From an uncultured virus (IMG/VR IMGVR_UViG_3300025277_002331) (Duplodnaviria > Heunggongvirae > Uroviricota > Caudoviricetes): a DNA stretch of 57,254 nt. Below the pieces are notes generated by a model. That model made no database searches and was not told where the DNA came from. It worked only from the letters and a program-made list of their open reading frames with translations. Below, piece by piece: positions 27,253 to 57,254 of the stretch; within the stretch, counting starts at the first letter, position 1; each line of letters starts with the position of its first letter. The position numbers and the translations under genes were made by a program. The stretch lies in the IMG/VR virus record IMGVR_UViG_3300025277_002331, positions 62,001 to 119,254 of that record; one strand, written 5' to 3'.

Positions 27253-27269
27253 TACAAAACCTCTCTCAG

Positions 27270-27343
27270 TACCCTCGGCAGGACTCGAACCTGCAACCTA
27301 CGGTTTAGAAGACCGTTGCTCTGTCCTGTTGAGCTACGAGGGC
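27270..27343 (-). tRNA. tRNA-Arg (anticodon UCU)
   Basis: GCCCTCG/CGAGGGT acceptor stem, ACGGT-CTTCTAA-ACCGT anticodon arm, GGTTCGAGTCC T-arm; CCA not encoded. Confidence 0.93.
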
Positions 27344-27349
27344 GCAATT

Positions 27350-27604
27350 CTATGCGCTACCTCTGCCCAAAACGGTCTCAGTTTTAAAAATATGCTCCCC
27401 ACTATGAACTGAATACGGCCTTCTTTCAGAAGGAAATCCCGTTTCAGTAACCATAAAAGTATCGCTAAGATTAACAGACTTATTTATACTGTCATTACCA
27501 AATTGTGCCGATATAATTTTTATTACTTTTAAACAGGCGCCAAAAGGAGTCTTTGATTCCGTTATAATCTTAATGTCGCCAGATTCGATGTAAAATTTAG
27601 CCAT
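27350..27604 (-). CDS. Hypothetical protein
   Basis: 84-aa ORF in run. Confidence 0.45.
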   Translation of the reverse strand: MAKFYIESGDIKIITESKTPFGACLKVIKIISAQFGNDSINKSVNLSDTFMVTETGFPSERRPYSVHSGEHIFKTETVLGRGSA

Positions 27605-27779
27605 CTTTATCCTTATCGGGGTTCCTTATGGGAGTAATCCGCTCTCTATTGTCCCACTGGATTTTTTCTATCTCCTTTTGAAGTTTCCTCTCCTCTCTCT
27701 TGAGAGTTCTTCTTTTAAGGAGCTTCTGTCTAACCCGTTTCTCTCTGGCTTTCTTTTTTTGGTCTCTTTTTTTTGGCAT
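27597..27779 (-). CDS. Small basic hypothetical protein
   Basis: Lys/Arg-rich 60-aa ORF. Confidence 0.45.
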   Translation of the reverse strand: MPKKRDQKKKAREKRVRQKLLKRRTLKREERKLQKEIEKIQWDNRERITPIRNPDKDKDG

Positions 27780-28044
27780 TTGGAAGTTCTTCCGCTGTAA
27801 TTGTTACTTTGTATCTTGTTTCTCCAAACAAATCGCAACCAATTGCGTGCATCACATCTTCAATAGTTGTAAAGTTTGTTCCTAACACACAACCTGTGCC
27901 GCCATCTTTGCCAAAAATTTTGCTTTGAGTTCTGGGTGTAATCTCAGTAAACCTAAAACTGGTTCTAGATATCCCGTCTAGTTTGCAATTAAAGTGAATC
28001 TTTTTGACACTATTTTTCTGGTTCTGTGAAACGTAGTTAGTCAT
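27730..28044 (-). CDS. Hypothetical protein
   Basis: 104-aa ORF with AAGGA RBS. Confidence 0.5.
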   Translation of the reverse strand: MTNYVSQNQKNSVKKIHFNCKLDGISRTSFRFTEITPRTQSKIFGKDGGTGCVLGTNFTTIEDVMHAIGCDLFGETRYKVTITAEELPNAKKKRPKKESQRETG

Positions 28045-28092
28045 TTAGGTGTCCTTCCAAAATTTCCAAACAGTCCAACAAATTAATCATAG

Positions 28093-28427
<335 letters not shown>

Positions 28428-28583
28428 ATTTTATTTAGCGTCTCTCCATAGTAGATAGTTTACTATACCCCAAAGTATGAAGTAATTCGATTCTGATACG
28501 TTTCCATTGAAAATAAAGCTAACCACAGCCGTAATCCAACACAAACAATAAGCAAAATGTAAACAGGTCTTCATCATTTTAAA

Positions 28584-28655
28584 TACCCCCGGTGAGAGTC
28601 GAACTCACGTTACCGCTTTATAAGAACGGCGTTCTAACCGTTGAACTACGGGGGC
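28584..28655 (-). tRNA. tRNA-Ile (anticodon UAU)
   Basis: GCCCCCG/CGGGGGT acceptor stem, CCGTT-CTTATAA-AGCGG anticodon arm, GTGAG-TTCGACT-CTCAC T-arm. Confidence 0.9.
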
Positions 28656-28661
28656 AGTTGT

Positions 28662-47281: not shown

Positions 47282-47750
47282 AAAGTTGCTGACTGACTTA
47301 CATTGGAACAATCTGGTTAAATAAGAAGGGACATAATGCTTTACCAAATTATCCTCGTAGACAGTGAGGGCGATGTTCGTAATGGCGGGCGATACTGTGC
47401 GACTACTACTTCTGACGTTGATATAGAGGCTGATAAGCGCGCTAAGAGGTTTACTGAGGCTTGTGGCAAAGAGGTCAACTGGGCCTTGTCTCTGGAGGTA
47501 GCCGGGTCTCCATGCAGTCCTATACTGACCCCAGAAGTCCTGTGACTTAGGTTAGTATAACTGACTACCGTAAAAGTGCTGACTACCCAACATTAGACCA
47601 ATCTGGATGGCTTAGGAAATACCCCGACTATGCACTAATATACACTCGGATACGCGAAAGTGCTGACTACCTTAAATTAACCGTATCTGGTTTGCTTAGC
47701 AAAGACACTACTTGCTCGGCCTCGAATCTGACCAGACTACGTTAGTATAG
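47282..47750. repeat. GCTGACT(AC) iteron-like repeats
   Basis: Three degenerate copies AAAGT(T)GCTGACT..ATCTGG at about 47282, 47573 and 47657, plus scattered GACTAC. Confidence 0.65.
47336..47545 (+). CDS. Hypothetical protein, only credible plus-strand gene
   Basis: Own promoter at 47242-47269, AGAAGGG RBS, no overlap with minus-strand genes. Confidence 0.6.
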   Translation: MLYQIILVDSEGDVRNGGRYCATTTSDVDIEADKRAKRFTEACGKEVNWALSLEVAGSPCSPILTPEVL

Positions 47751-47798
47751 GGCGTTAGTACAGTTCGCTACTGGAAGATGCTTGCTTTCCGGCGAATC

Positions 47799-47880
47799 GA
47801 CGTAAGTCGTTGGTGTCAAAGGGGTTAGGTCGGCGCGGTAGCGCGCGGACGTAACCTCTTGTCAGATAAGGACTTACGTC
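47799..47880. repeat. 82-bp double-palindrome R1 (inverted orientation)
   Basis: CGTAAGTCGTT-GGTGTCA-AAGGGGTTAGG-20 bp-CGTAACCTCTT-GTCAGAT-AAGGACTTACG. Confidence 0.9.
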
Positions 47881-47896
47881 AACTCTTATACATACC

Positions 47897-47929
47897 AAAA
47901 GAAAAACCCCCGCACGTTGCGGGGGGGTT
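47897..47929 (-). terminator. Intrinsic terminator
   Basis: AACCCCCCCGC-AACGT-GCGGGGGTT then T-run. Confidence 0.75.
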
Positions 47930-48022
47930 GGGGTCAGTCTTTGAGAAGTACGACTAAGCCACTAATGACAAAGCACGCACACAATACTAAGGCGAAAGCC
48001 TCCGATGCTGTGCCGTCCACGT

Positions 48023-49246
48023 TTAGACGAAAACCGCTTCGATTTCCTTCTCAGTGTAAGTATCGGCACGCTTCTTGAGAGCGTCCCAACGGTTCTCGGT
48101 CATTCCAATCAGGTCGCCACCAATCTCGTCGAACTTGACCCAACTGGTGTTGTCCAGAGTTTGACCCGCGCGGGTAACCGCGTTCACGATTCCAAACAGG
48201 TTACGGTCAGTCCGCTCATGCTGAACCCACTGAGTCAGAACCTCAGTCGATTCCTTTTTGCGGAGCTTCCTGTCGGTGCAAACCGCGCCGATGAGATTCT
48301 TCATGGAAACCTCATCGCAGGTATGAACCTTGATGCCGAGGAACCGTTCGATGCCATCCGGCAGCAGCGGCAATTGAGCTTCGATATTCTTCCTGATATC
48401 GGAAGCCAGCCCGTCAAGGTCAATCGTGCCACGGTGAACCTTGGAGATAGATTTCCCTTTGGTCTGTCCCCAGATGCAACCGTTGAGGCAGATAGCCCGA
48501 AAGATGCTGGGCATCTGAGAGACACGCCGCGTTCCGATTTCGCAATTGCCGATTGAAAGCATCCCGCCGTAATCGGTGTCGTCATCCTGCCCGTAGTCGA
48601 TAATCGTATCAGGCAGAAGCACGTTGCCAAAAATGGTGTCAGCATCACCACGCCAGTGGGAAAGCCGACCGCCCGGAAGGATGTTGCTCAACTGCTCAAG
48701 ATACCAGCGGTTGTCAATCGGAGCGTACTTCTCAGTGAGGAAGGCACGGAGCGTTCCGTCCTGATAAGTGCGGAGACGGAAATTCTTGTCCGCATCCACC
48801 CGCCGCAACGCATTCTCGCAAACGGCGACCAGCGTGTCGGCATCCTGTTCGTCCCGCTGGAATCGCTCCTGCCCGTTGTTCTTCTCGGGGTTGGTCATCA
48901 GCGAGTTGAGGAAGAACGTACTTGTGAAAGTAGCCACCCCAAACTGGTTCACGGCGTGTTGCGTTGGCTTGAACTCACGCCCGTCTGCCAACTGCATGAC
49001 GAACTCACCAGCCAGATTGACGGCGGGAGTAATCTGCGAACGGGGAACCATAACGTCCTCGCGTTCTGCAATGCCCTGCTCCAACGCTTCGAGTCCATCC
49101 TCGAACGATTCCGTCTGTGCCCACCAGTCTTTGTGGACGTGCGTATTTTTCTGGAATCCCGCGCCGGTCTGCCCTTGCAGCGTCTGCACGAATGCCCCCT
49201 CGTCCTTGGTGTCGTCGGTCGGTCGCAGCGTCGTGTAGTCGGTCAT
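48023..49246 (-). CDS. DUF932-like protein
   Basis: RAFLTEKYAPIDN, IGNCEIG, FRAICLNG, KVHRG, NLFGIVNAVTRAG. Confidence 0.7.
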   Translation of the reverse strand: MTDYTTLRPTDDTKDEGAFVQTLQGQTGAGFQKNTHVHKDWWAQTESFEDGLEALEQGIAEREDVMVPRSQITPAVNLAGEFVMQLADGREFKPTQHAVNQFGVATFTSTFFLNSLMTNPEKNNGQERFQRDEQDADTLVAVCENALRRVDADKNFRLRTYQDGTLRAFLTEKYAPIDNRWYLEQLSNILPGGRLSHWRGDADTIFGNVLLPDTIIDYGQDDDTDYGGMLSIGNCEIGTRRVSQMPSIFRAICLNGCIWGQTKGKSISKVHRGTIDLDGLASDIRKNIEAQLPLLPDGIERFLGIKVHTCDEVSMKNLIGAVCTDRKLRKKESTEVLTQWVQHERTDRNLFGIVNAVTRAGQTLDNTSWVKFDEIGGDLIGMTENRWDALKKRADTYTEKEIEAVFV

Positions 49247-49286
49247 GTTCTGACCCTTTCAAAAAAAGAAGTGTGTCAACTCACCC

Positions 49287-49315
49287 AGTGTACTCTATAT
49301 ATCGTCCAAAGTCAA
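49287..49315 (-). promoter_or_regulatory. Early-type promoter with CGAT spacer motif
   Basis: TTGACT-TTGGACGATATATAGAG-TACACT. Confidence 0.75.
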
Positions 49316-49353
49316 CCGCCCACTTCACAGGAAACGCCAAGTTTATCAGAATA

Positions 49354-49435
49354 GACGTAAACCGTTGTCAGATAAGGGGTTAGGACGGCGCCCTACCGCG
49401 CGGACGCAACCCCTTGCCACGCAAGGACTTACGTC
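49354..49435. repeat. 82-bp double-palindrome R2 (inverted orientation)
   Basis: CGTAAACCGTT-GTCAGAT-AAGGGGTTAGG-20 bp-CGCAACCCCTT-GCCACGC-AAGGACTTACG. Confidence 0.9.
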
Positions 49436-49450
49436 AATCGCTTGGAAGAC

Positions 49451-49499
49451 AAAAAAATCGGGGCGGTAACAGGCCGTGAGAAACCTGCTACCGCCCCGA
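49451..49499 (-). terminator. Intrinsic terminator
   Basis: TCGGGGCGGTAGCAGG...CCTGTTACCGCCCCGA then T7. Confidence 0.8.
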
Positions 49500-49519
49500 C
49501 AGTAGGAGCGTTTCGCTCG

Positions 49520-49870
49520 CTACGACTGGGCTTCGGCCTCGGCGTCGGCCTCGGCGTCGGCCTCGTCGGCCTTTGCCAGTGCTTTCAGTCCAGCGAGCTT
49601 GGCGAGTTCCGCGATGTTGACGCTCTGCCGTCCTTCGGTCGGCAACTTCGGCAACTTCTCAAACCCGCCGCTGGTCAGCTTGCGGTTGACAGCGTACTGC
49701 CGCTGGATGACGCTGGTCTCTTGCAGGCCAAGCGATTCGGCAATCATCTGATGCGTTCCGATTCGCTTCCCATCGTTGTCCATGAGGGCGGCAACTCGCA
49801 CCCACTCAACCACAAAGTTCTCGTCCGCAACCCGAACACGCTTCTCGCCACTCTTCTTCGCATCTGCCAT
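49520..49870 (-). CDS. Hypothetical protein with acidic AD/AE repeat tail (start MADAKK)
   Basis: GGGAGAG RBS upstream of 49870; own promoter and terminator. Confidence 0.65.
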   Translation of the reverse strand: MADAKKSGEKRVRVADENFVVEWVRVAALMDNDGKRIGTHQMIAESLGLQETSVIQRQYAVNRKLTSGGFEKLPKLPTEGRQSVNIAELAKLAGLKALAKADEADAEADAEAEAQS

Positions 49871-49946
49871 GGTCTCAACTCTCCCGTTAGGGGCCAAAAT
49901 GTTTGCGGGTCACTCGCCCGCTTATTCCTCAACTGCTTATGCTCCC

Positions 49947-49974
49947 ATTATACAAGTGTTATCGGCAGGGTCAA
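49947..49974 (-). promoter_or_regulatory. Early-type promoter with CGAT spacer motif
   Basis: TTGACC-CTGCCGATAACACTTG-TATAAT. Confidence 0.8.
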
Positions 49975-50014
49975 GGTCATTTCTGCAAGGTTTTTTGAGA
50001 ATTCCAGATTCGCC

Positions 50015-50048
50015 CGACTACCTGACTATGCTGACTATGCTGACTACC
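50015..50048. repeat. Tandem CTGACTA(T/C) repeats
   Basis: cgactacctgactatgctgactatgctgactacc. Confidence 0.7.
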
Positions 50049-50105
50049 ACCATGTCCACCGACCCGGCTGGATAAGGTGAAACCTGGGCCTAATTTACCC
50101 TAATC

Positions 50106-50187
50106 GACGTAACTCGTTATATGACAAGAGGTTACGTCGCCGCCCTAGGGCGCGGCCCTAAGTCCTTGCTATTACACGGGTTGCGTT
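50106..50187. repeat. 82-bp double-palindrome R3
   Basis: CGTAACTCGTT-ATATGAC-AAGAGGTTACG-20 bp-CCTAAGTCCTT-GCTATTA-CACGGGTTGCG. Confidence 0.85.
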
Positions 50188-50591
50188 ATATTGTGGTTTA
50201 TGGCTCGCACCGTGGGCTTACCTTCCAGAACATACATCTTAGCCCATTCCGATTCCGTCACCGGGATAGGATACTGGTCATCACACACGCCAGTACGTTG
50301 AATGAACGTATTATGCTTGTACGGGTTATACATCACAAAACAATCGCGGTCGGCTTTGAAGGTGGGAACCTCTGCATTCATTGCAAGGTAGCCCGATACG
50401 CCAGCGTGGACGTTCTTCTTGCCCTCACGCCGCACCCGTGCCTGTCCAGCCTTGCCTACCAGAAACCGACAATCCTTCAGGTGGATATAGTCGGTGTGGC
50501 ACAACACCTTGCCGCTCTGTCTCACACTCCACGTTTGTTTGTGGAGATTCCAGTAGACATAGAGCCGCTTATCATAGTTGATACAGGTCAT
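50172..50591 (-). CDS. Conserved-type phage hypothetical protein
   Basis: VYWNLHK..WSVR, RVRREGKKNVHAGV, YNPYK. Confidence 0.75.
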   Translation of the reverse strand: MTCINYDKRLYVYWNLHKQTWSVRQSGKVLCHTDYIHLKDCRFLVGKAGQARVRREGKKNVHAGVSGYLAMNAEVPTFKADRDCFVMYNPYKHNTFIQRTGVCDDQYPIPVTESEWAKMYVLEGKPTVRAINHNITQPV

Positions 50592-51370
50592 ACCGTCGCC
50601 CCTTGCTTTCTAGAATAACTCCCCTTGCCCTTGAGAGCCTTCAACGCCGTCGCCGCTTCCGTTCCCTTTGGTTGTGTCCCGTGAATCAACAGTGCGAAAC
50701 TCTCGTCCCGCCACGTCGGATTCGCCGCATGGGAATCGTCGTGGTCGATGAACAATCCGAGGTCCACCGCTTCCGCTTCGGAGAACACCACTTGAGCGAA
50801 CCGGAAATCAAAATGCTCAATCATCCAGTCATCCCGCCCACCATATGACGCCGTCAGCACCAGATTCTCGGGAATCTCACTTCTCAGAGCATCCCAATAT
50901 TTCAGGCTTTTGGTGTAGGCGTAGAACAGAACGTCCGGTCGATTATTCGCGAGGTGAATCCACGCCTTGAGATAGTTTTCGTTGAAGAAATCCCCGGCGA
51001 CGTGAATCCGAACAATCCCGGCATTCTCGGGCATCGACTTCCACAATTCCAGATACATCAACGGCCAGTCGTCTTGGTTTTCCTTCAGGGTGTCGTAATT
51101 GTGTTTGCGGAGATTGTATACGTTGGTGTACTGCACCTCTTGCGATGCGGAGAAACAACGGAACTCATTCTTGGGACCGTCTTTAATTGTCCGCTTGCCG
51201 TCGTCACCGACAACCGCTTTCGAGAGACACGCTTCCGCAAACGGGCACGAATAGCCCGACAGCAGGTCGAGGCTGTAAACCTTCCGCCCGTCGTCAAGAT
51301 ACTTGGCGATTGCCCAGCAACTCTCGTTGAGCCGTTCCGTTTTCGCGTTTGCTTTCGACCACTTCAACAT
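50588..51370 (-). CDS. GP88-family protein (start MLKWSK)
   Basis: GYSCPFA..C, CF, VRIHVAGDFF...Y...W, FYAYTKS, NLVLTAS; promoter position excludes the 51406 start. Confidence 0.75.
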   Translation of the reverse strand: MLKWSKANAKTERLNESCWAIAKYLDDGRKVYSLDLLSGYSCPFAEACLSKAVVGDDGKRTIKDGPKNEFRCFSASQEVQYTNVYNLRKHNYDTLKENQDDWPLMYLELWKSMPENAGIVRIHVAGDFFNENYLKAWIHLANNRPDVLFYAYTKSLKYWDALRSEIPENLVLTASYGGRDDWMIEHFDFRFAQVVFSEAEAVDLGLFIDHDDSHAANPTWRDESFALLIHGTQPKGTEAATALKALKGKGSYSRKQGATV

Positions 51371-51404
51371 TCTGTTACCCCTTCTTTTCTGTGTTACGCT
51401 TCCC

Positions 51405-51432
51405 ATTCTACTGTATATATCGGCAATGTCAA
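51405..51432 (-). promoter_or_regulatory. Early-type promoter with CGAT spacer motif
   Basis: TTGACA-TTGCCGATATATACAG-TAGAAT. Confidence 0.8.
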
Positions 51433-51470
51433 CCGACGTACTTCACAAAAAAAGGAATTATGACCAAGTA

Positions 51471-51552
51471 GCCATAACTCCTTATATAACAAGAGGTTAC
51501 GTCGCCGCAGTAGGCCGCCGCCCTAACCTCTGTCAGGACAAGCGTTTACGTC
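51471..51552. repeat. 82-bp double-palindrome R4
   Basis: CATAACTCCTT-ATATAAC-AAGAGGTTACG-20 bp-CCTAACCTCTG-TCAGGAC-AAGCGTTTACG. Confidence 0.88.
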
Positions 51553-52737
51553 GCTGTCGCTTCTGTTGGTTTTTCCAATCTGTCAACGCTATGTCTGTCA
51601 TTGGTTCACCCGTCCAAATATTTAGTCCCTGCTCCCATCTTTCCGCGTAAAGTTCTACATTGGGCGCTCTTTCTTTTGATAGAACATCGTCAGCAGAACC
51701 CCTCGCATCCTTGTTGGTTCCCTTAGTACCGCCCTGTATATATATGTCTTTGTTCTGGATACGTACATTATCCATTATTCAGTCCCCACAAACTGCTCAA
51801 CTCGCAACTCGCTCATCTTGACAAGTGAGAAGCTCTTGATTTCGGTATGGGGAATATCTCCCTCGGGACAATTCACATACTTGGAATCCTGAATTGTGAT
51901 AAACGGGCCTTGCGGACCCCAACCAAAATCCTTCAGTGGGCCGCTACGTCGCTTGTCGTGGTACATAAAGGAAACTTCCGCACCAGTTTGCAACGCCTTA
52001 GTCAAAAGTGGTCTAAGCTGATTCAATGTTGGGCCTGAGATTCTCATATTCCCGTTCCTCATCGTAATAGTAGATGTAACTCCACGCCTGTGCCAACGTC
52101 TCGAAAAAGTCCTCTACAAACTCGTTATTGTCATACAGCGTATACCGATAGGTAATGCCGTCCTGAATGGTCACTCTCTTGTCAAGCACCAGCCCCATGT
52201 CACTAGCAACCCGTGCAACGTCTTCAGTTCTCAACATCTGGTAAATCCCCTTCGTTCATTTCCCTAAGTTCAACATTTCCCCTTGCGTGAAGCGGAACAT
52301 TCTGTGGTCCGACTCCGGCATACCCCGGCGGGGCTTCCCACATCAAGCCCGTACTAATCACGATTTCCCCCTCAATATCTTCTGTGATATGACATGCCGG
52401 GAAGTGTTCCACGGCAGTTTGCCACAATTCGTTAAGCGTCATCGGTCTCGCCCTCTTCTCCGAACATCTCGTGCAATTCGTTAGTCTCACCCTGTGTATT
52501 CAGGCAGTCGTACATCAGGCTCATCATGGTCATGGCATGACAGGTGGAACGCTCGTCCAACTTGAACTCGTTAAGAATGAGACACAACGCTTCCAGCAGG
52601 GGCCGGTTTTCCTTGTGCATCTTCGTCATCATCGCGTGGGTGTACTCATCAATCTTATGACGAGCCTGTGCCCTTCCAAGCGTGGCGATGATGGTCTTTT
52701 CTTCAACAGTCGGCAGCATATCAATTTCCCTTTTCAA
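51533..52737 (-). other. Operon of five small hypothetical ORFs (52432-52737, 52224-52490, 52013-52237, 51775-52062, 51533-51775)
   Basis: Overlapping ORFs downstream of promoter 52746-52773; 51775-52062 has a weak WYL-like pattern. Confidence 0.6.
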
Positions 52738-52745
52738 TCTACCCC

Positions 52746-52773
52746 ATTATAAGGTATTATCGGCCCTTGTCAA
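52746..52773 (-). promoter_or_regulatory. Early-type promoter with CGAT spacer motif
   Basis: TTGACA-AGGGCCGATAATACCT-TATAAT. Confidence 0.8.
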
Positions 52774-52839
52774 CCCCTAACTTTAACGTTTTCGCTGACT
52801 ACAGACCATCCCAGACCTTCAGCCGACTGGAACAGGTGA

Positions 52840-52912
52840 GACACAGGGGCGACGAGCCGAGAGCGAGCGGGGTAGAACGTCTCTCAAAGCTCGCCGCCCC
52901 TTCAAAGTCATG
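52840..52912 (-). ncRNA. Candidate small hairpin RNA A
   Basis: Directly downstream of promoter 52919-52946; stem AGGGGCGGCGAGC/GCTCGTCGCCCCT; no credible ORF. Confidence 0.45.
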
Positions 52913-52918
52913 CCTATC

Positions 52919-52946
52919 ATTATACTCTATATCGGCAAAATGTCTA
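52919..52946 (-). promoter_or_regulatory. Early-type promoter with CGAT spacer motif
   Basis: TAGACA-TTTTGCCGATATAGAG-TATAAT. Confidence 0.7.
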
Positions 52947-52973
52947 GTGCAGCATTAGCTACATTTGGCATTT

Positions 52974-53055
52974 TACGTAAGTCGTTGTGTGGCAAGAGGT
53001 TACGTCGCCGCACTACCGCGCGGTCATAACCCCTTGCTAAACAAGGAGTTATGTC
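52974..53055. repeat. 82-bp double-palindrome R5
   Basis: CGTAAGTCGTT-GTGTGGC-AAGAGGTTACG-20 bp-CATAACCCCTT-GCTAAAC-AAGGAGTTATG. Confidence 0.9.
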
Positions 53056-53060
53056 CAACG

Positions 53061-53610
53061 AAAAAACCCCACTAAGTGCTTCCATGCGTTAGCATCATAC
53101 TACTTAGTGAGGTTTTGAGGCAAGAGGTTGAGGAAAGGGCAACTCCAAACCCACTTGCTTTGTATATGGACGGGTGGGACTTATGTATTACCCACAACTT
53201 TTCGGGGACAGATATGTCCACCCTGTGAAGGGCTTCCCTACTTTGTACCACTTCTAACAGCCTCATCCATTTGGACATACTCTGTTAGATGTGTGCCTTA
53301 CCACCTCTGCCTAGCTTTGGTGTTCGGCCACCGTCCTACCAACAGGGAGCTACCCTGTCAGTGTTTGTTTCGTGTTGTCAAAGAAAGTGAAAAACGGTCG
53401 CGGGGTAAGCCTTACCCCGTAAATCCTAAACTGTCTTACCAATCCTGTCACGTTCATTGATAACCGAAGTTATCTCTGGTTGTGCGAAGAAGGCTTTAAC
53501 TGGACAACCGTCTTTTGCGAGAAGGATACTCTTTGTGGGAACGACCACTTAGAGCCGTCCACCCTTCTCTTTGAGAGACGAGTTACAATTTCTTGTTCCT
53601 TGTCTCTCAT
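53061..53610 (-). ncRNA. Candidate ~550-nt structured ncRNA
   Basis: Bounded by promoter 53617-53644 and terminator 53061-53116; consecutive hairpins including a cUUCGg tetraloop. Confidence 0.55.
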
Positions 53611-53616
53611 GTCCTC

Positions 53617-53644
53617 ATTATACTCCCGAATCGCCGGGGGTCAA
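53617..53644 (-). promoter_or_regulatory. Early-type promoter with CGAT spacer motif
   Basis: TTGACC-CCCGGCGATTCGGGAG-TATAAT. Confidence 0.75.
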
Positions 53645-53672
53645 GGTTTCACTGGATTTTTTTTCGGATTTT

Positions 53673-53855
53673 TCAACCGATGCTCACCGTGATGGTTTTC
53701 GGGGGAGTGCTGCCGAGGGCGTGCTTCTGGACATACAGAGGTCCAATCACAGCCTGACTACCGTCCTCGACTACTTCCTGAAACCGGACGGTGTTCTTGG
53801 TTTCCTTCTCCTGCTCGAACTTCAACTCGTGCTTTTCCATGTCGCCCTCTTTCAA
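53673..53855 (-). CDS. Small hypothetical protein (start probably MEKHEL)
   Basis: KETKNTVRFQE...IGPLYVQK; downstream of promoter 53879-53906. Confidence 0.6.
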   Translation of the reverse strand: MKEGDMEKHELKFEQEKETKNTVRFQEVVEDGSQAVIGPLYVQKHALGSTPPKTITVSIG

Positions 53856-53878
53856 AAGTGGTTTGTTTCAACTCCCCC

Positions 53879-53906
53879 ATTCTATAGTATATATCGTCAT
53901 TGTCAA
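53879..53906 (-). promoter_or_regulatory. Early-type promoter with CGAT spacer motif
   Basis: TTGACA-ATGACGATATATACTA-TAGAAT. Confidence 0.8.
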
Positions 53907-53934
53907 CCCCGCCCTCTACTGTTTTCATCAGATT

Positions 53935-54016
53935 GTCGTAAGTCGTTGTGTGGCAAGAGGTTACGTCGCCGCAGTAGGGCGCCGCCCTAACCCCTTGTCG
54001 CATAAGGAGTTAGTCG
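53935..54016. repeat. 82-bp double-palindrome R6
   Basis: CGTAAGTCGTT-GTGTGGC-AAGAGGTTACG-20 bp-CCTAACCCCTT-GTCGCAT-AAGGAGTTAGT. Confidence 0.9.
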
Positions 54017-54673
54017 TCTTCCATCCCATCGTGTTCGGCCTTCCGGGTCACCTCAAGATGAGCCTGTGCGAATTCGCCCTTCGGCACTTTTACCGCCCAC
54101 GAATGACGCCCGTATGAAATCGTCAGATGCTCGAAGTTGTCAATAGGTCTCGCGTTCCTGTCGCTTGGCATGCTCACGATAGCTCTATGTAGGTTTTGCA
54201 TTATTCTTTTTCCCCTTCCACGAATTCGATGTTGTAATCCGTCTCCGCATCGCCTACGGGGTCTTCCCCGAACATCTTGTCAAAACATTTCCCGCACGTT
54301 CCGCTGATGAGAATTTCCCGCTCATCCGTAGACAGGTACGGCATAGCATCCTGAATCAGTGTCCCGGTTTGCCAACGAAACACGTCGTCGTCGTTCACTT
54401 TCAGGACGTGTGTATCTCCACAGATACGACAGGTTGCTCGCAAGGTATTGTCAGTCAATTTCATCAGTCAATTGCCCCTTCACCAATAAACAGTTCTGCG
54501 TAGAAAATTGCATCCGCCTCATCCGCACAGTCGGCAATCATGTCCATCAGGAAATCATCCGGGCCATCCGCAATTGGCGCCCACACTTCGTACACACTGT
54601 ACCGGGGAACCCAAACAATCTCGACCCCGTCCTGATTCCAAACCAACTCGCCGTGATGAGTTCTGATAGCCAT
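54010..54673 (-). other. Operon of three small ORFs (54464-54673, 54201-54464 zinc ribbon, 54010-54201)
   Basis: Coupled TGATG/TAATG junctions; CRIC...IQDAMPYLS..ERE.LISGTC..C motif in the middle ORF. Confidence 0.7.
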
Positions 54674-54707
54674 TGTCTATCCCCTTCGTTTGCCCTTGTT
54701 ATCCCCC

Positions 54708-54735
54708 ATTATAAGGGTATATCGTCATAGGTCAA
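54708..54735 (-). promoter_or_regulatory. Early-type promoter with CGAT spacer motif
   Basis: TTGACC-TATGACGATATACCCT-TATAAT. Confidence 0.8.
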
Positions 54736-54773
54736 TCCCACGCTGCACCTATTTCGTAGATTTTAGCAAAATA

Positions 54774-54855
54774 GTCGTAAGTCGTTATATAGTAAGGAGT
54801 TACGTCGGCGCGCTAGGGCGTTGCCATAACCCCTTGTCATAGAACAACTTAGGTC
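54774..54855. repeat. 82-bp double-palindrome R7
   Basis: CGTAAGTCGTT-ATATAGT-AAGGAGTTACG-20 bp-CATAACCCCTT-GTCATAG-AACAACTTAGG. Confidence 0.9.
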
Positions 54856-54906
54856 AACACAATACAAAGGAAAGCAAACACAAGCCAACTCCACAACGCT
54901 ACTCTA

Positions 54907-55251
54907 TCATTTAACAATGCCGTGTACCTCACCTGTTTTGCTCCGTTTTACTTTACAGCCTTCCTTGTACGCTTTTACTTTAACTCGCACCTGTCCCCAA
55001 CCATGCCGTCCCCGGTTATATTGGGAGATAAGGTCGAGCAGGTTTTGTGGTCTTACGTTTGAAATTGTCAACCACCTCTTATCGGTAATTTTGTGGACAA
55101 TCTCAAACCCCACAGCAATGACGTTTTTTGGCTTTATCTTTCTTCCAGAGAACTTGTCCACGCCTTTGCGTTTAATGATTCTACGCCTTGCCATCGGTTT
55201 CCACCTTCTTTCCCTTGTCACGACATTCCCGTTTCCACGTTGAGCGGTCAC
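54907..55251 (-). CDS. Basic hypothetical protein (start likely MARRR)
   Basis: Lys/Arg-rich ORF; AAGGTGG RBS before the internal Met. Confidence 0.5.
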   Translation of the reverse strand: MTAQRGNGNVVTRERRWKPMARRRIIKRKGVDKFSGRKIKPKNVIAVGFEIVHKITDKRWLTISNVRPQNLLDLISQYNRGRHGWGQVRVKVKAYKEGCKVKRSKTGEVHGIVK

Positions 55252-55354
55252 AGTAGTTCCACCCCTCGCCCAGCAGAGTCTTCAAAGCCTGATTGTCGGC
55301 GTGAGTGGAATCGGCAACCTTCTTGAACTTGTCGCCTTTACGCAGAATCTTCAT

Positions 55355-55804
55355 CTAGTTGTTCCTGTAGTTAGAGGTAAACTCGTCAGAAAACGGGTCT
55401 TGCTTGGACAGATGGTTCATCATCTTGTTGCCGAGGCTGTTTGGGTTTTTGGTAGCGTCCAGTTGCGAGGCCACATTGATGAAGTCAAGCACCTGCGAAA
55501 CATTGAGGTGTCCACAAACGTCATCGTAGAACGTGTCGCTGTCATCCTCACCGATAGGTCCGGTGAATCCCGGCACGGCAACCCACGACAGGTTACTACC
55601 AGTAATGTAGGCAGCACACTCGGCGGTGTTGGAACCCCAATGGTCGTCGCCGTCAATCGCCTTTTTCGGGGCGTCGAAGGCGGCATTCGACACGTCGCTG
55701 TCGCAGTAGTTGCCCGGACCAAACTGGACGGAAACCGTCACGCCGTTAGGCAAGTCCAGTTGGAACCCCTTGTTGTCACAGATACGCATATCCCTGTCGG
55801 TCAT
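55355..55804 (-). CDS. Hypothetical protein (start MTDRDM)
   Basis: NGVTVSVQFGPGNYC...AECA motif; AGGGG RBS. Confidence 0.65.
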   Translation of the reverse strand: MTDRDMRICDNKGFQLDLPNGVTVSVQFGPGNYCDSDVSNAAFDAPKKAIDGDDHWGSNTAECAAYITGSNLSWVAVPGFTGPIGEDDSDTFYDDVCGHLNVSQVLDFINVASQLDATKNPNSLGNKMMNHLSKQDPFSDEFTSNYRNN

Positions 55805-55929
55805 TCTTCTGCCCCTTCTATTTCCACCACCCAAGTTTATCAGCCAGCCAGCATACCCCTGCCAGCAATATCAATCCTATCAGAAATGTCCCCGGTGTCA
55901 ACCATTCAGGTGGCATTTTACCACTCCTT

Positions 55930-56166
55930 TTATGTCCCTATCACTTTCCAGATTTTGACTCGCTTGTTAATTTTGGCATTGAACCCAACACCACCGCCGG
56001 TCAGGTTGGCGTAGTCAATCGCCACCGGCAAATCCCCCAGCAGTTTTTCATCCCCGAGGTGGATAGTGATGTATTGGTGGTTCCGGTGGGCTGTCAATGG
56101 GACCAACTCGAAGTTGTGTTGCGCGCCCCTGTCAAACAGGTCGCCGTTCTTTGGTTTCTTCTGCAT
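55930..56166 (-). CDS. Hypothetical protein (start MQKKPK)
   Basis: Downstream of promoter 56201-56228 with AAGGG RBS. Confidence 0.55.
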   Translation of the reverse strand: MQKKPKNGDLFDRGAQHNFELVPLTAHRNHQYITIHLGDEKLLGDLPVAIDYANLTGGGVGFNAKINKRVKIWKVIGT

Positions 56167-56200
56167 CGTGTTGCCCTTGGCCCTGTCTTGTATGTTCCCC

Positions 56201-56228
56201 ATTATATACTATTATCGTCCAAAGTCAA
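56201..56228 (-). promoter_or_regulatory. Early-type promoter with CGAT spacer motif
   Basis: TTGACT-TTGGACGATAATAGTA-TATAAT. Confidence 0.8.
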
Positions 56229-56314
56229 ACCTATACTTGAGGAAAATCGCTTGACCGCTGACTTTTGCTGACTACAGACTATCCTAGACTTCCAGCGGGC
56301 TAGACTACCTGATA

Positions 56315-56390
56315 CAAAAGAGGGGCGGCGGGTCAATGTGCGCCAACACTCGCCGCCGCCCCGTGTTCCCCGACTGTTCAATCAAAGAAC
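56315..56390 (-). ncRNA. Candidate small hairpin RNA B
   Basis: Downstream of promoter 56397-56424; stem GGGGCGGCGG/CCGCCGCCCC then TCTTTT; no ORF. Confidence 0.5.
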
Positions 56391-56396
56391 TCCCCC

Positions 56397-56424
56397 ATTA
56401 TATACTAGTATCGACAGATGTCAA
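56397..56424 (-). promoter_or_regulatory. Early-type promoter with CGAT spacer motif
   Basis: TTGACA-TCTGTCGATACTAGTA-TATAAT. Confidence 0.8.
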
Positions 56425-56440
56425 CAAATTCTTTAGCATT

Positions 56441-56522
56441 TCTCTAAGTCGTTATCTGACAATAGGTTACGTCGCGGCCCTAGGGCGCGGTCCTAAGTCG
56501 TTGATATGAAACAACTTAGGTA
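56441..56522. repeat. 82-bp double-palindrome R8
   Basis: TCTAAGTCGTT-ATCTGAC-AATAGGTTACG-20 bp-CCTAAGTCGTT-GATATGA-AACAACTTAGG. Confidence 0.9.
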
Positions 56523-57135
56523 AAGAGAAATGGAACGCCGGGGGTTGGTCACCCCGGAACAGTCACTTGCGATTCGAGACCAACCAGTCTCCCCCCGTAC
56601 AAGCACGTCTGCTCGCTGCCGGGTTAATCCTCGCAAGGGGTTGGGACTGTCGGATATCCCTAAGTTTAAATCCCGTTCCATGTAAGGTACTAGCCCTATT
56701 TATCTCCACCCTTCTCGGGTTTGTAGGCGTGGCTAGATTTACGGCTGAGCCGCTCTGACGCCTCGTTGTTCACCGGTATACACCGGCTACATAAAAGTGC
56801 TGCCCAAGGTGGGATTCGAACCAAACGCTACTAGAACGTTTACGGGGTGAATGAGGTGTGTACACACCCACCTGTATTCGTACAAACACAGGCCCGCCAC
56901 GATACTAAGGCTGTCAGAATTCCCCCAGCGATTGTACAGTCGCTATCAGGGAAAACCCGCCATGCTCATGCCACCGAGCTACAAGGGCTTCACTTGTTTC
57001 AATTGTAAAAGAGCTTGTAAGGTGGAGCGGCTGCCAGTTTCCCGGCCCTACTCCCAGTGTTGTGCCGCGTTTATACCCAGTCGATGGCGGTTAGGCTTTC
57101 ACTTCACCGATAGGGAGCGGCGTTGTTTTGTATGT
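56523..57135 (-). ncRNA. Candidate ~610-nt structured ncRNA with tRNA-like domain
   Basis: Fills the module between R8 and promoter 57141-57168; D-arm-like and T-loop elements; long-range helices; no credible ORF. Confidence 0.55.
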
Positions 57136-57140
57136 CCCCC

Positions 57141-57168
57141 ATTATAGTAGACTATCGACATTCCACAA
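57141..57168 (-). promoter_or_regulatory. Early-type promoter with CGAT spacer motif (weak -35)
   Basis: TTGTGG-AATGTCGATAGTCTAC-TATAAT. Confidence 0.65.
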
Positions 57169-57205
57169 GCCCAGTCGCCACCTATTCCATAATTTTATAG
57201 GAATT

Positions 57206-57254
57206 GTCGTAAGTCGTTGCTATATAAGGGGTTACGCTCGCGCCGTACCGCGCC
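57206..57254. repeat. 82-bp double-palindrome R9 (truncated by window end)
   Basis: CGTAAGTCGTT-GCTATAT-AAGGGGTTACG-CTCGCGCCGTACCGCGCC. Confidence 0.85.

Follow-up and report, generated by a model that had tools for sequence, protein, structure and literature searches.

An uncatalogued non-coding RNA array with an expanded tRNA mimic in the last cassette of an uncultured phage record

What kind of RNA is encoded by a promoter-led stretch of some 610 nt at the end of a phage contig, and what might it do for the phage? A sequence-only reading of the region had proposed one large RNA, possibly a relative of GOLLD and ROOL, containing an expanded tRNA-like domain. The locus belongs to an uncultured virus of the Caudoviricetes (IMG/VR record IMGVR_UViG_3300025277_002331). 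The window, meaning the whole stretch of DNA analysed (57,254 nt), is the final 57 kb of that 119,254-nt linear record, the completeness of which is estimated at 79%. The array fills the final cassette, and the end of the window coincides with the end of the contig. Elsewhere the window encodes rIIA and rIIB, a recombinase, a ribonucleotide reductase, PhoH, a sigma factor, a tmRNA and two tRNAs, the last three lying together at 27269-28656 on the minus strand as tRNA-Arg(UCU), a full tmRNA with the tag AEKQFALAA and tRNA-Ile(UAU). No close relative was found among GenBank phages, whose nearest proteins are less than 60% identical, and blastn of the array against these phages returned 49 records, all chance-level matches of 24-30 nt.

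The array is real, non-coding and uncatalogued in Rfam. It is very probably built as a row of RNA modules that fold separately, led by an early-type promoter. The array of the window has five modules, M1-M2-M4-M5-M6, mostly joined by short A/C-rich linkers; the names M0 to M7 were coined in this analysis. The features of the cassette are as follows.

57191..57253, unstranded: palindromic cassette repeat of ~86 nt, upstream copy, truncated where the contig stops; family D3, with 8 copies at 47.8-57.25 kb
57141..57168, minus strand: predicted sigma-70-type promoter, -35 TTGTGG at 57168-57163, N16 spacer, -10 TATAAT at 57146-57141; family D7
57064..57121, minus strand: M1, a hairpin of 58 nt; its 15-nt apical loop and its A-rich bulge do not vary
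57017..57057, minus strand: M2, 41 nt, a predicted small pseudoknot with a GAAA hairpin, judged by eye
57003..57014, minus strand: candidate boxA-like element before M4, pattern G[CTA]TCTTT[TG]ACAA
56795..56995, minus strand: M4, from an alignment of 15 variants, pair counts and model R1; no CCA
56689..56791, minus strand: M5, whose core does not vary and whose side hairpins do; CUAGCC and GGCUAG probably form a pseudoknot
56531..56680, minus strand: M6, a 150-nt multibranch RNA closed by UGGAACG/CGUUCCA
56523..56557, minus strand: terminator-like hairpin and U-rich tail at the end of M6, of a kind that the scan found twice against 3.3 expected by chance
56445..56530, unstranded: palindromic cassette repeat, downstream copy; repeat family D1

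From 47.8 kb onwards the window consists of cassettes, each bracketed by the palindromic repeat of ~86 nt and a promoter whose spacer is 16 nt long. About nine copies of the repeat, with promoters, flank small uncharacterised ORFs, Gp88 and an L5 gp82-like gene at 47794-57253, and this zone is a PeSL-like shuffling zone. The PeSL cassettes of T4-type phages (PMC2839356) likewise bracket non-essential cargo with a repeated strong promoter and a palindrome that drive shuffling. The window has this layout around variable cargo; the likeness is functional. The two appear to differ in sequence, and here the cargo consists of RNA modules that are shuffled more finely, at linker repeats of 2-5 nt. 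At the border of the zone, short repeats containing CTGACTAC (family D5) occupy 47283-47740, where GC content steps from ~0.40 to 0.52; they are a possible origin or genome end. The cassette next to the array (56250-56397, minus strand) has no ORF; its perfect promoter leads into a boxA-like stretch, then a GC-rich hairpin and a U tail, and it may encode a further small RNA.

The promoter that the sequence-only reading had placed ahead of the region stands. TTGTGG-N16-TATAAT at 57168-57141 belongs to the cassette-promoter repeat family D7, and the promoter directly precedes the first module, whichever module that is, in 17 of 20 pattern-matched loci, two of the misses being incomplete contigs. 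It is missing from the list of the consensus scan because its -35 box is weak; three sister promoters with the same 16-nt spacer score 11-12 out of 12 in that scan. Transcription of the array would start near 57135.

Relatives of the array were found by several routes. In a metagenome scan, with patterns guided by differences seen in RNA-library contigs, 18 of 70 loci proved true relatives by blastn and 52 were dropped as chance matches. IMG/VR added L118, L119 and eight M1 loci, two of which are the same contigs as L118 and L119, and a protein-led search yielded modules in one of 16 loci (L119). Rows outnumber independent samples, since L080 shares 99.7% identity with the window and three pairs of loci (L082/L058, L088/L102 and L115/L107) duplicate each other across the array. 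Other IMG/VR patterns recovered no relatives: none of nine loci with the D-arm pattern, none of eight with the anticodon-arm pattern, and none of 30 with the T-loop pattern was related to M4 (for the T loop, beyond the 3' 20 letters; these matches were mostly plain tRNA genes), and two further patterns had no matches. Among 45 loci in GTDB genomes none carried M4 beyond the leader, so these genomes offer no hint of the host.

The Rfam comparison proposed with the sequence-only reading places no family on the array. All 4227 families, among which we take ROOL, OLE and Y RNA to be included, gave only two chance-level matches (E 3.7 and 9.1) in 55800-57254; the modules of related loci, 11 in one search and 6 in another, gave none. 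The tRNA model RF00005, the tmRNA and other covariance models, and the intron and ribozyme families of Rfam had no match on the array. Some modules may be among the 8,495 candidates of PMC10690425 (Fremin 2023). Two contig identifiers were absent from the three supplements of that study that were searched, and its main table may omit contigs.

The relatives show that the row is not a unit. Among 11 loci with at least 300 nt upstream and at least 480 nt downstream, nine architectures occur; the other nine rows were excluded as too short. Relatives add M0, a 34-nt pseudoknot whose second stem is changed on both sides in L119 (by eye), or M3, a 55-nt long hairpin, or they drop M1 or M2. M6 has given way to other modules in L088, L090, L096, L115 and L118, the substitutes among relatives being M6b, M6c, M7 or a true tRNA-Asp. 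The tRNA-Asp ends the row in L088, L096, L115 and L118, 4 of 19 relatives, and in L119 it and M7 each stand alone behind promoters of their own. M4 is accessory: complete G006 has one copy, and complete G001, which carries M0, M1 and M7, lacks both M4 and M5. More distant phages have M1 with other neighbours, or M7 alone. The modules span 34-243 nt, each is present in single copy, and no helix was seen to connect one module with another. Of the six deletion junctions inspected, four coincide with linker repeats of 2-5 nt (for example TACAA, CAC and ACA) and two have no repeat. In L093 a window-type promoter is separated from M1 by an additional ORF, another promoter and M0, so the form in the window looks like a deletion product. 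Given that modules are gained, lost and replaced separately, the array is unlikely to be one large RNA, and the proposal of a single ~610-nt RNA of the GOLLD/ROOL type is not supported.

Other parts of the sequence-only reading fared better. All the strings it had quoted lie on the minus strand as it had placed them, and the helix closing M6 (56680-56674 with 56537-56531) and the U-rich tail (56530-56523) are borne out. The region is also non-coding, as had been proposed. ORFs of 42-98 aa overlap it, and there is no shared reading frame because module insertions of 40, 42 and 65 nt and M4 lengths of 210-213 nt disrupt any common one; protein coding was rejected. That the minus strand is structured holds on comparative evidence, folding energy being only modestly above chance. 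The whole array has a folding z of -1.91, with none of 20 shuffles as good; the single modules range from -0.94 to -3.16, and the tRNA-like part of M4 has -0.28. The non-chance evidence for the predicted structure is comparative. Pair types (14 G-U versus 1 A-C) favour RNA of the minus strand, though the helices were chosen on that strand.

M4 is the expanded tRNA mimic of the row. Its parts, all on the minus strand, are listed here.

56995-56991 with 56799-56795, minus strand: outer helix of 5 bp, into which the acceptor continues
56988-56982 with 56808-56802, minus strand: acceptor stem of 7 bp
56979-56964, minus strand: D arm, from the alignment
56963-56907, minus strand: lengthened anticodon arm, from the alignment
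56927..56944, minus strand: apical hairpin of the anticodon arm, its loop with UGUACA, GUAC at 56937-56934; in 14 of 15 variants
56900-56898 with 56811-56809 (provisional) and 56822-56821 with 56813-56812, minus strand: split T stem, from the alignment
56820-56814, minus strand: T loop, from the alignment
56823..56897, minus strand: 75-nt multibranch insertion beside the T loop, with three hairpins
56892-56871 and 56868-56855, minus strand: GUAC-loop hairpins of the insertion, the first 95.6% paired with 2 both-side pairs
56841-56823, minus strand: third hairpin of the insertion, its loop starting CUAG in the window and CCGG in others

The tRNA-like elements seen from the sequence alone, an acceptor 5' strand with D arm at 56988-56964 and a T loop with acceptor 3' strand at 56822-56801 (5 of 7 pairs, two U-U), are both present. 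The helix that had been drawn between AGGTGGG (56873-56867) and CCCACCT is not supported and was rejected: the strands are complementary in the window, but over 15 variants only 74 of 105 cells are paired. The M4 helices of the alignment are 93.2% paired in the 15 distinct variants, against 35-53% with slid partners. The covariation score is 0.149 versus 0.094, with none of 500 shuffles as high, and cells with both-side change exceed all 500 shuffles. The two pair-level counts, on which kinship among the variants has the least inflating effect, are no higher than in shuffles: pairs with both-side change number 8 versus 6.2 (58/500) and further pair types 19 versus 19.4 (397/500).

The acceptor stem is fully paired, with both-side changes, in 12 of 15 variants; the D stem is paired in all 15, with one both-side change, and changes at position 8 (tRNA numbering) go together with those at a base of the D loop. 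Pairing is lost at 27-43 in 11 of the 15 variants and at 31-39 in 13. Only 2 bp close the T loop, ahead of which 75 nt are inserted, and there is no uninterrupted 5-bp T stem. An alternative outer T stem with 56900-56898 is paired in 65 of 75 cells. Pair 50-64 is U-U in 10 of 15 variants (A-U in 3, U-A in 2) and L139 has U-U at two of three outer T-stem positions, so the outer T stem is proposed provisionally. In the 13 long variants that were parsed the anticodon arm measures 57-59 nt, and in L118 it has 15 nt, against 17 nt in a canonical tRNA; its apical loop has 3, 7 or 8 nt (3 in L118, 8 in most variants). The third insertion hairpin is replaced by a 49-nt arm in L082/L115. The letters of the elbow, the D-loop GG and the T loop UUCGAAU, are kept; the anticodon arm and the T-side insertion vary freely. 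The tRNA-mimic domain of the earlier reading is upheld, since acceptor stem, D arm and T loop are retained across M4 variants. A diverged copy is that of L139, which model R1 detects at 91 bits. Its M4 has new acceptor letters and new stems in both insertions, with the D arm, T loop and UUCACCCCG junction unchanged, and its own MFE fold is the same cloverleaf (z -2.13).

ARAGORN, also when run with introns, made no tRNA call at the array, and none at M4 in 18 of 18 related loci. The lengthened arm, the 75-nt insertion at the T loop and the absence of an encoded CCA make M4 a mimic and not a decoding tRNA; judged from its sequence, M4 appears unable to decode in its present form. A conserved Tyr anticodon was considered and rejected: the window group has a similar loop, but L139 pairs those letters and the L118 loop has 3 nt. 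Literature searches turned up no tRNA mimic bearing so large an insertion next to its T loop.

The remaining modules have comparative evidence of their own. M1 shows both-side change in 7 of 16 predicted pairs among 11 variants, around its invariant loop, and was present in 8 of 8 IMG/VR pattern matches with differing neighbours. M2 is identical in 11 loci including the window and absent from L090, L096, L049, L115, L117 and L118. M5, which has the lowest folding z of the modules (-3.16), starts 3 nt behind M4 in 17 loci. In 18 of 18 complete copies it lies 3' of a tRNA-like RNA (not a true tRNA), and in L142 a compact M5 (46 bits) follows a different expanded tRNA-like RNA. M6 occurs in 7 loci, 5 of them distinct, with both-side change at four pair positions among five variants that form essentially two haplotypes. 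The boxA-like 12-mer precedes M4 in 20 of 21 loci under a pattern defined after seeing the sites, and the genome holds 3 matches to it versus an estimated ~2 by chance. The site in the window agrees with 10 of 11 letters of the E. coli consensus and that in L090/L096 with 10 of 11 of the B. subtilis consensus, both as printed in PMC13753749.

Pieces of the array also occur in contigs of marine RNA libraries from four studies (X1, X6, X7 and X10). These contigs come from 4 of 13 listed runs and show no strand, level or ends, and DNA is a possible source. Both X7 contigs lie inside the array; X10 and X6 have array pieces and one piece each on a flanking gene, and X1 contigs cover the array and flanking genes. 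Most pieces come from relatives and not from the window strain. The both-side changes of M6 recur in an X7 contig. Where an X7 contig passes window 56532, M6 runs on into an ACACA linker and then into different sequence; M6 is therefore not always the last module. Splicing was rejected as the cause of a 110-nt joint in an X1 contig in favour of a diverged L139-type copy: ~107 letters are unplaced at the joint versus 108 in L139, and the acceptor changes match L139. In X7 and X10, contigs continue without a break across the anticodon extension into the T-side insertion, and no joint removing either M4 insertion was found in the four libraries, the contigs of which can miss rare forms.

How does the array compare with known systems? 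It works like several of them without membership in any: T4 RNAC/RNAD, manA, GOLLD/ROOL, type III antitoxin arrays and theta ribozymes. The closest are T4 RNAC/RNAD and manA. PMC3014915 and PMC9697503 describe RNAC (species 1) and RNAD (species 2) as stable small phage RNAs with no assigned role, transcribed with tRNAs, and in this the array may resemble them. RNAC shares its T loop with M4, as part of a tRNA T arm, but has an intact T stem where that of M4 is split; with filters off, R1 scored at best 7 bits on the T4 region L188, with only T-loop fragments on RNAC. RNAC and RNAD sit in a tRNA cluster and are classed as late, whereas the array has its own early-type promoter and exchangeable modules.

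Like M4, manA (RF01745) is marine, phage-borne, ~190 nt long and furnished with a T-arm-like 3' hairpin, but its model has no match at M4. It was described as a 5' UTR riboswitch candidate in PMC2864571, whereas no ORF follows inside the array. A manA-like RNA does occur in another cassette of the window (53164-53360, minus strand), after the ORF at 53676-53855, with 25.2 bits (E 1.5e-4) against a cut-off of 55.2, and has homologues in L096, L118, L135, L138 and L139. In cyanophage S-CREM1, wcaG, manA and abiF lie within 0.9 kb, according to PMC9964418.

GOLLD and ROOL are phage-borne, ornate RNAs near tRNAs, as is the array; the palindromic loops of M4 may be a counterpart of their palindromic kissing loops, and GOLLD can carry tRNAs in its linker (bioRxiv 10.1101/2024.12.08.627333). 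They are single RNAs with conserved cores, whereas the array is a row of optional modules, and the best GOLLD (RF02032) score in the genome, outside the array, is 8.5 bits versus a cut-off of 150. Type III antitoxin arrays share with M0 and M2 small pseudoknot-like units, A-rich linkers and a non-coding transcript. They consist, however, of tandem copies of one 34-36-nt unit, whereas the modules here all differ, and no internal repeat family, antitoxin family match or adjoining toxin gene was seen at the array. Theta ribozymes are structured RNAs directly 3' of phage tRNAs (PMC10879173), and M5 lies 3' of tRNA-like RNAs.

The reading that we favour, at a probability of roughly 0.4, is that the modules are accessory early decoy RNAs against host RNA-handling or defence proteins, the array being an accessory early non-coding operon. 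Host RNA polymerase would transcribe the row early, and the boxA-like site would recruit Nus factors so that the untranslated RNA escapes Rho. Host nucleases would cut or trim at the linkers and leave stable modules, each serving as decoy or sponge to some RNA-binding protein of the host. M4 would tie up proteins that recognise the tRNA shape, either tRNA-cleaving defence nucleases or tRNA-sensing regulators, and strain-to-strain shuffling of modules would track the defences of each host. Phages keep host-interaction functions in accessory, strain-variable cargo under strong early promoters (compare PMC2839356). A decoy role is favoured because the array is cargo of this kind and phage RNA decoys exist, pseudo-ToxI being the precedent (PMC5086642). 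The nine architectures in 11 loci, the linker repeats at deletion junctions, the pairing and covariation of M4, the G-U excess, the cloverleaf of L139, the accessory nature of M4, the cassette zone and the RNA-library pieces count in favour. A decoy for an anticodon nuclease should retain the 7-nt anticodon loop; most M4 variants have 8 nt there and L118 has 3, which counts against that target. The pair-level counts that do not exceed shuffles, the weak outer T stem, the limits of the RNA-library contigs and the contrast with the tandem units of type III antitoxins weigh against the reading as well.

Conservation of elbow and acceptor beside a free anticodon arm would also suit a processing or stabilising scaffold, in which M4 serves as tRNA-shaped punctuation that attracts RNase P together with 3' nucleases. 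M5 would then work on the 3' end of the tRNA-like RNA before it, perhaps cleaving itself as theta ribozymes do. The true tRNA-Asp at the end of four rows fits such a role, as does the position of M5, with invariant core letters, behind even the unrelated tRNA-like RNA of L142. It is nevertheless an unlikely explanation. L139 has M4 without M5, and punctuation has no need of three conserved GUAC loops. An HDV-like fold for M5 was rejected, since the strand forming the pseudoknot sits within the loop of the inner helix (by eye, against the HDV layout), and M5 matches no Rfam ribozyme family. M4 would also make a poor RNase P substrate, given its 75-nt insertion at the T loop and the additional helix on its acceptor end.

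The loops of M4 raise the possibility of self-assembly. Palindromic loops, three with GUAC and one with CUAG or CCGG, might pair between M4 copies to form an RNA-only oligomer, as in OLE, GOLLD and ROOL. GUAC occurs in all three loops in 15 of 16 variants, including L139 with its replaced stems, and in two loops of the short-arm variant. The switch from CUAG to CCGG exchanges one palindrome for another, a sign used for intermolecular kissing loops in bioRxiv 10.1101/2024.12.08.627333. We rate such assembly as distinctly improbable, as three GTAC arise by chance in 7.85% of composition-matched shuffles, the CUAG/CCGG change amounts to two haplotypes and perhaps one event in a loop missing from L082, L115 and L139, and repeated identical loops suit a multi-site protein sponge equally.

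Two further readings are each quite doubtful. One promoter and one terminator-like end, the constant order M0-M1-M2-M3-M4-M5 where modules are present, and the adjoining of M4 and M5 could reflect one large RNA with optional domains, GOLLD/ROOL-like. Any module can be missing, however, M4 even from a complete relative; modules stand alone elsewhere, no helix joins them and GOLLD has no match. Alternatively, the array could be mostly neutral cargo or DNA-level elements, with degenerate tRNA relics and palindromes spread by cassette recombination. The many palindromes and the weak folding z-scores of M4 are consistent with this, as is the acceptor of the window, one of three variants among the 15 with two U-U mismatches, which combines the 5' strand of one paired haplotype with the 3' strand of another and so looks recombinant. 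Neutrality accords poorly with compensatory changes in M1, M4, M5 and M6, the G-U bias to one strand and invariant loop and junction letters beside replaced stems. That M4 is an intron-containing tRNA gene, both insertions being spliced out to give a working tRNA, is highly improbable: the 3' 20 letters match ordinary phage tRNAs and one RNA contig skips 110 nt, but that skip is the L139-type copy, the X7 and X10 contigs are unbroken, no intron family matches, no constant anticodon remains after removing the insertions, and these (~45 and 75 nt) are smaller than self-splicing introns need to be.

Returning to decoys, a more ambitious form can be outlined, though it is unlikely to hold. The array would be an RNA-only counter-defence kit, a pool of RNA folds dealt out per strain like anti-CRISPR genes, with M4 as a multivalent mimic that clusters through its GUAC loops and M5 as a new ribozyme or aptamer class for tRNA-like 3' ends. 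On this view the phage group would keep, in promoter-led arrays, a dozen or more unrelated, uncatalogued folds (M0-M7 and several in L119, L135, L138, L139, L141 and L142), with no fewer than three distinct expanded tRNA mimics among them. The mimic of L142 (2600-2858, minus strand) has a Leu/Ser-type D arm, an intact T arm, ~65 nt in the anticodon loop and its own promoter, with the compact M5 next. The third (L119:14268-14430, plus strand, also after M1 in L135/L138) is ~165 nt long without an Rfam match, and has an acceptor-like stem with both-side changes, a UGCAAAU-type T loop and an encoded CCA end.

Further putative RNA modules adjoin M1 and M4 in relatives. Uncatalogued ACAA-linked modules, partly common to both loci, lie upstream of M1 at L139:5690-5960 (plus strand) and L141:70-330 (minus strand), and L139 has a small module after M4. 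Also upstream of M1, L141:345-440 (minus strand) holds three tandem ~25-nt units, each a small stem with an A-rich tail, in a type III antitoxin-like layout; a related unit follows M1 in L140. The true tRNA was located as follows.

L088:2097-2171, L096:2342-2415, L115:2084-2157 and L062:3620-3693: tRNA-Asp(GUC)

It has U at position 37 in every copy printed (L088, L096, L115, L062, L118, L119 and L139). U37 is unusual in tRNAs and possibly an escape from anticodon nucleases.

To our knowledge, stable tRNA-like phage RNAs have been without an assigned function since T4 RNAC and RNAD were described. Several uncatalogued folds come with the array, together with a tRNA mimic enlarged by a long insertion on its T-loop side, and natural variation has already done the dissection of its modules in close relatives. 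Given that modules are present or absent singly in these relatives, that stems are swapped while loops are kept, and that the RNAs are of a size that can be synthesised, this old question of function becomes testable.
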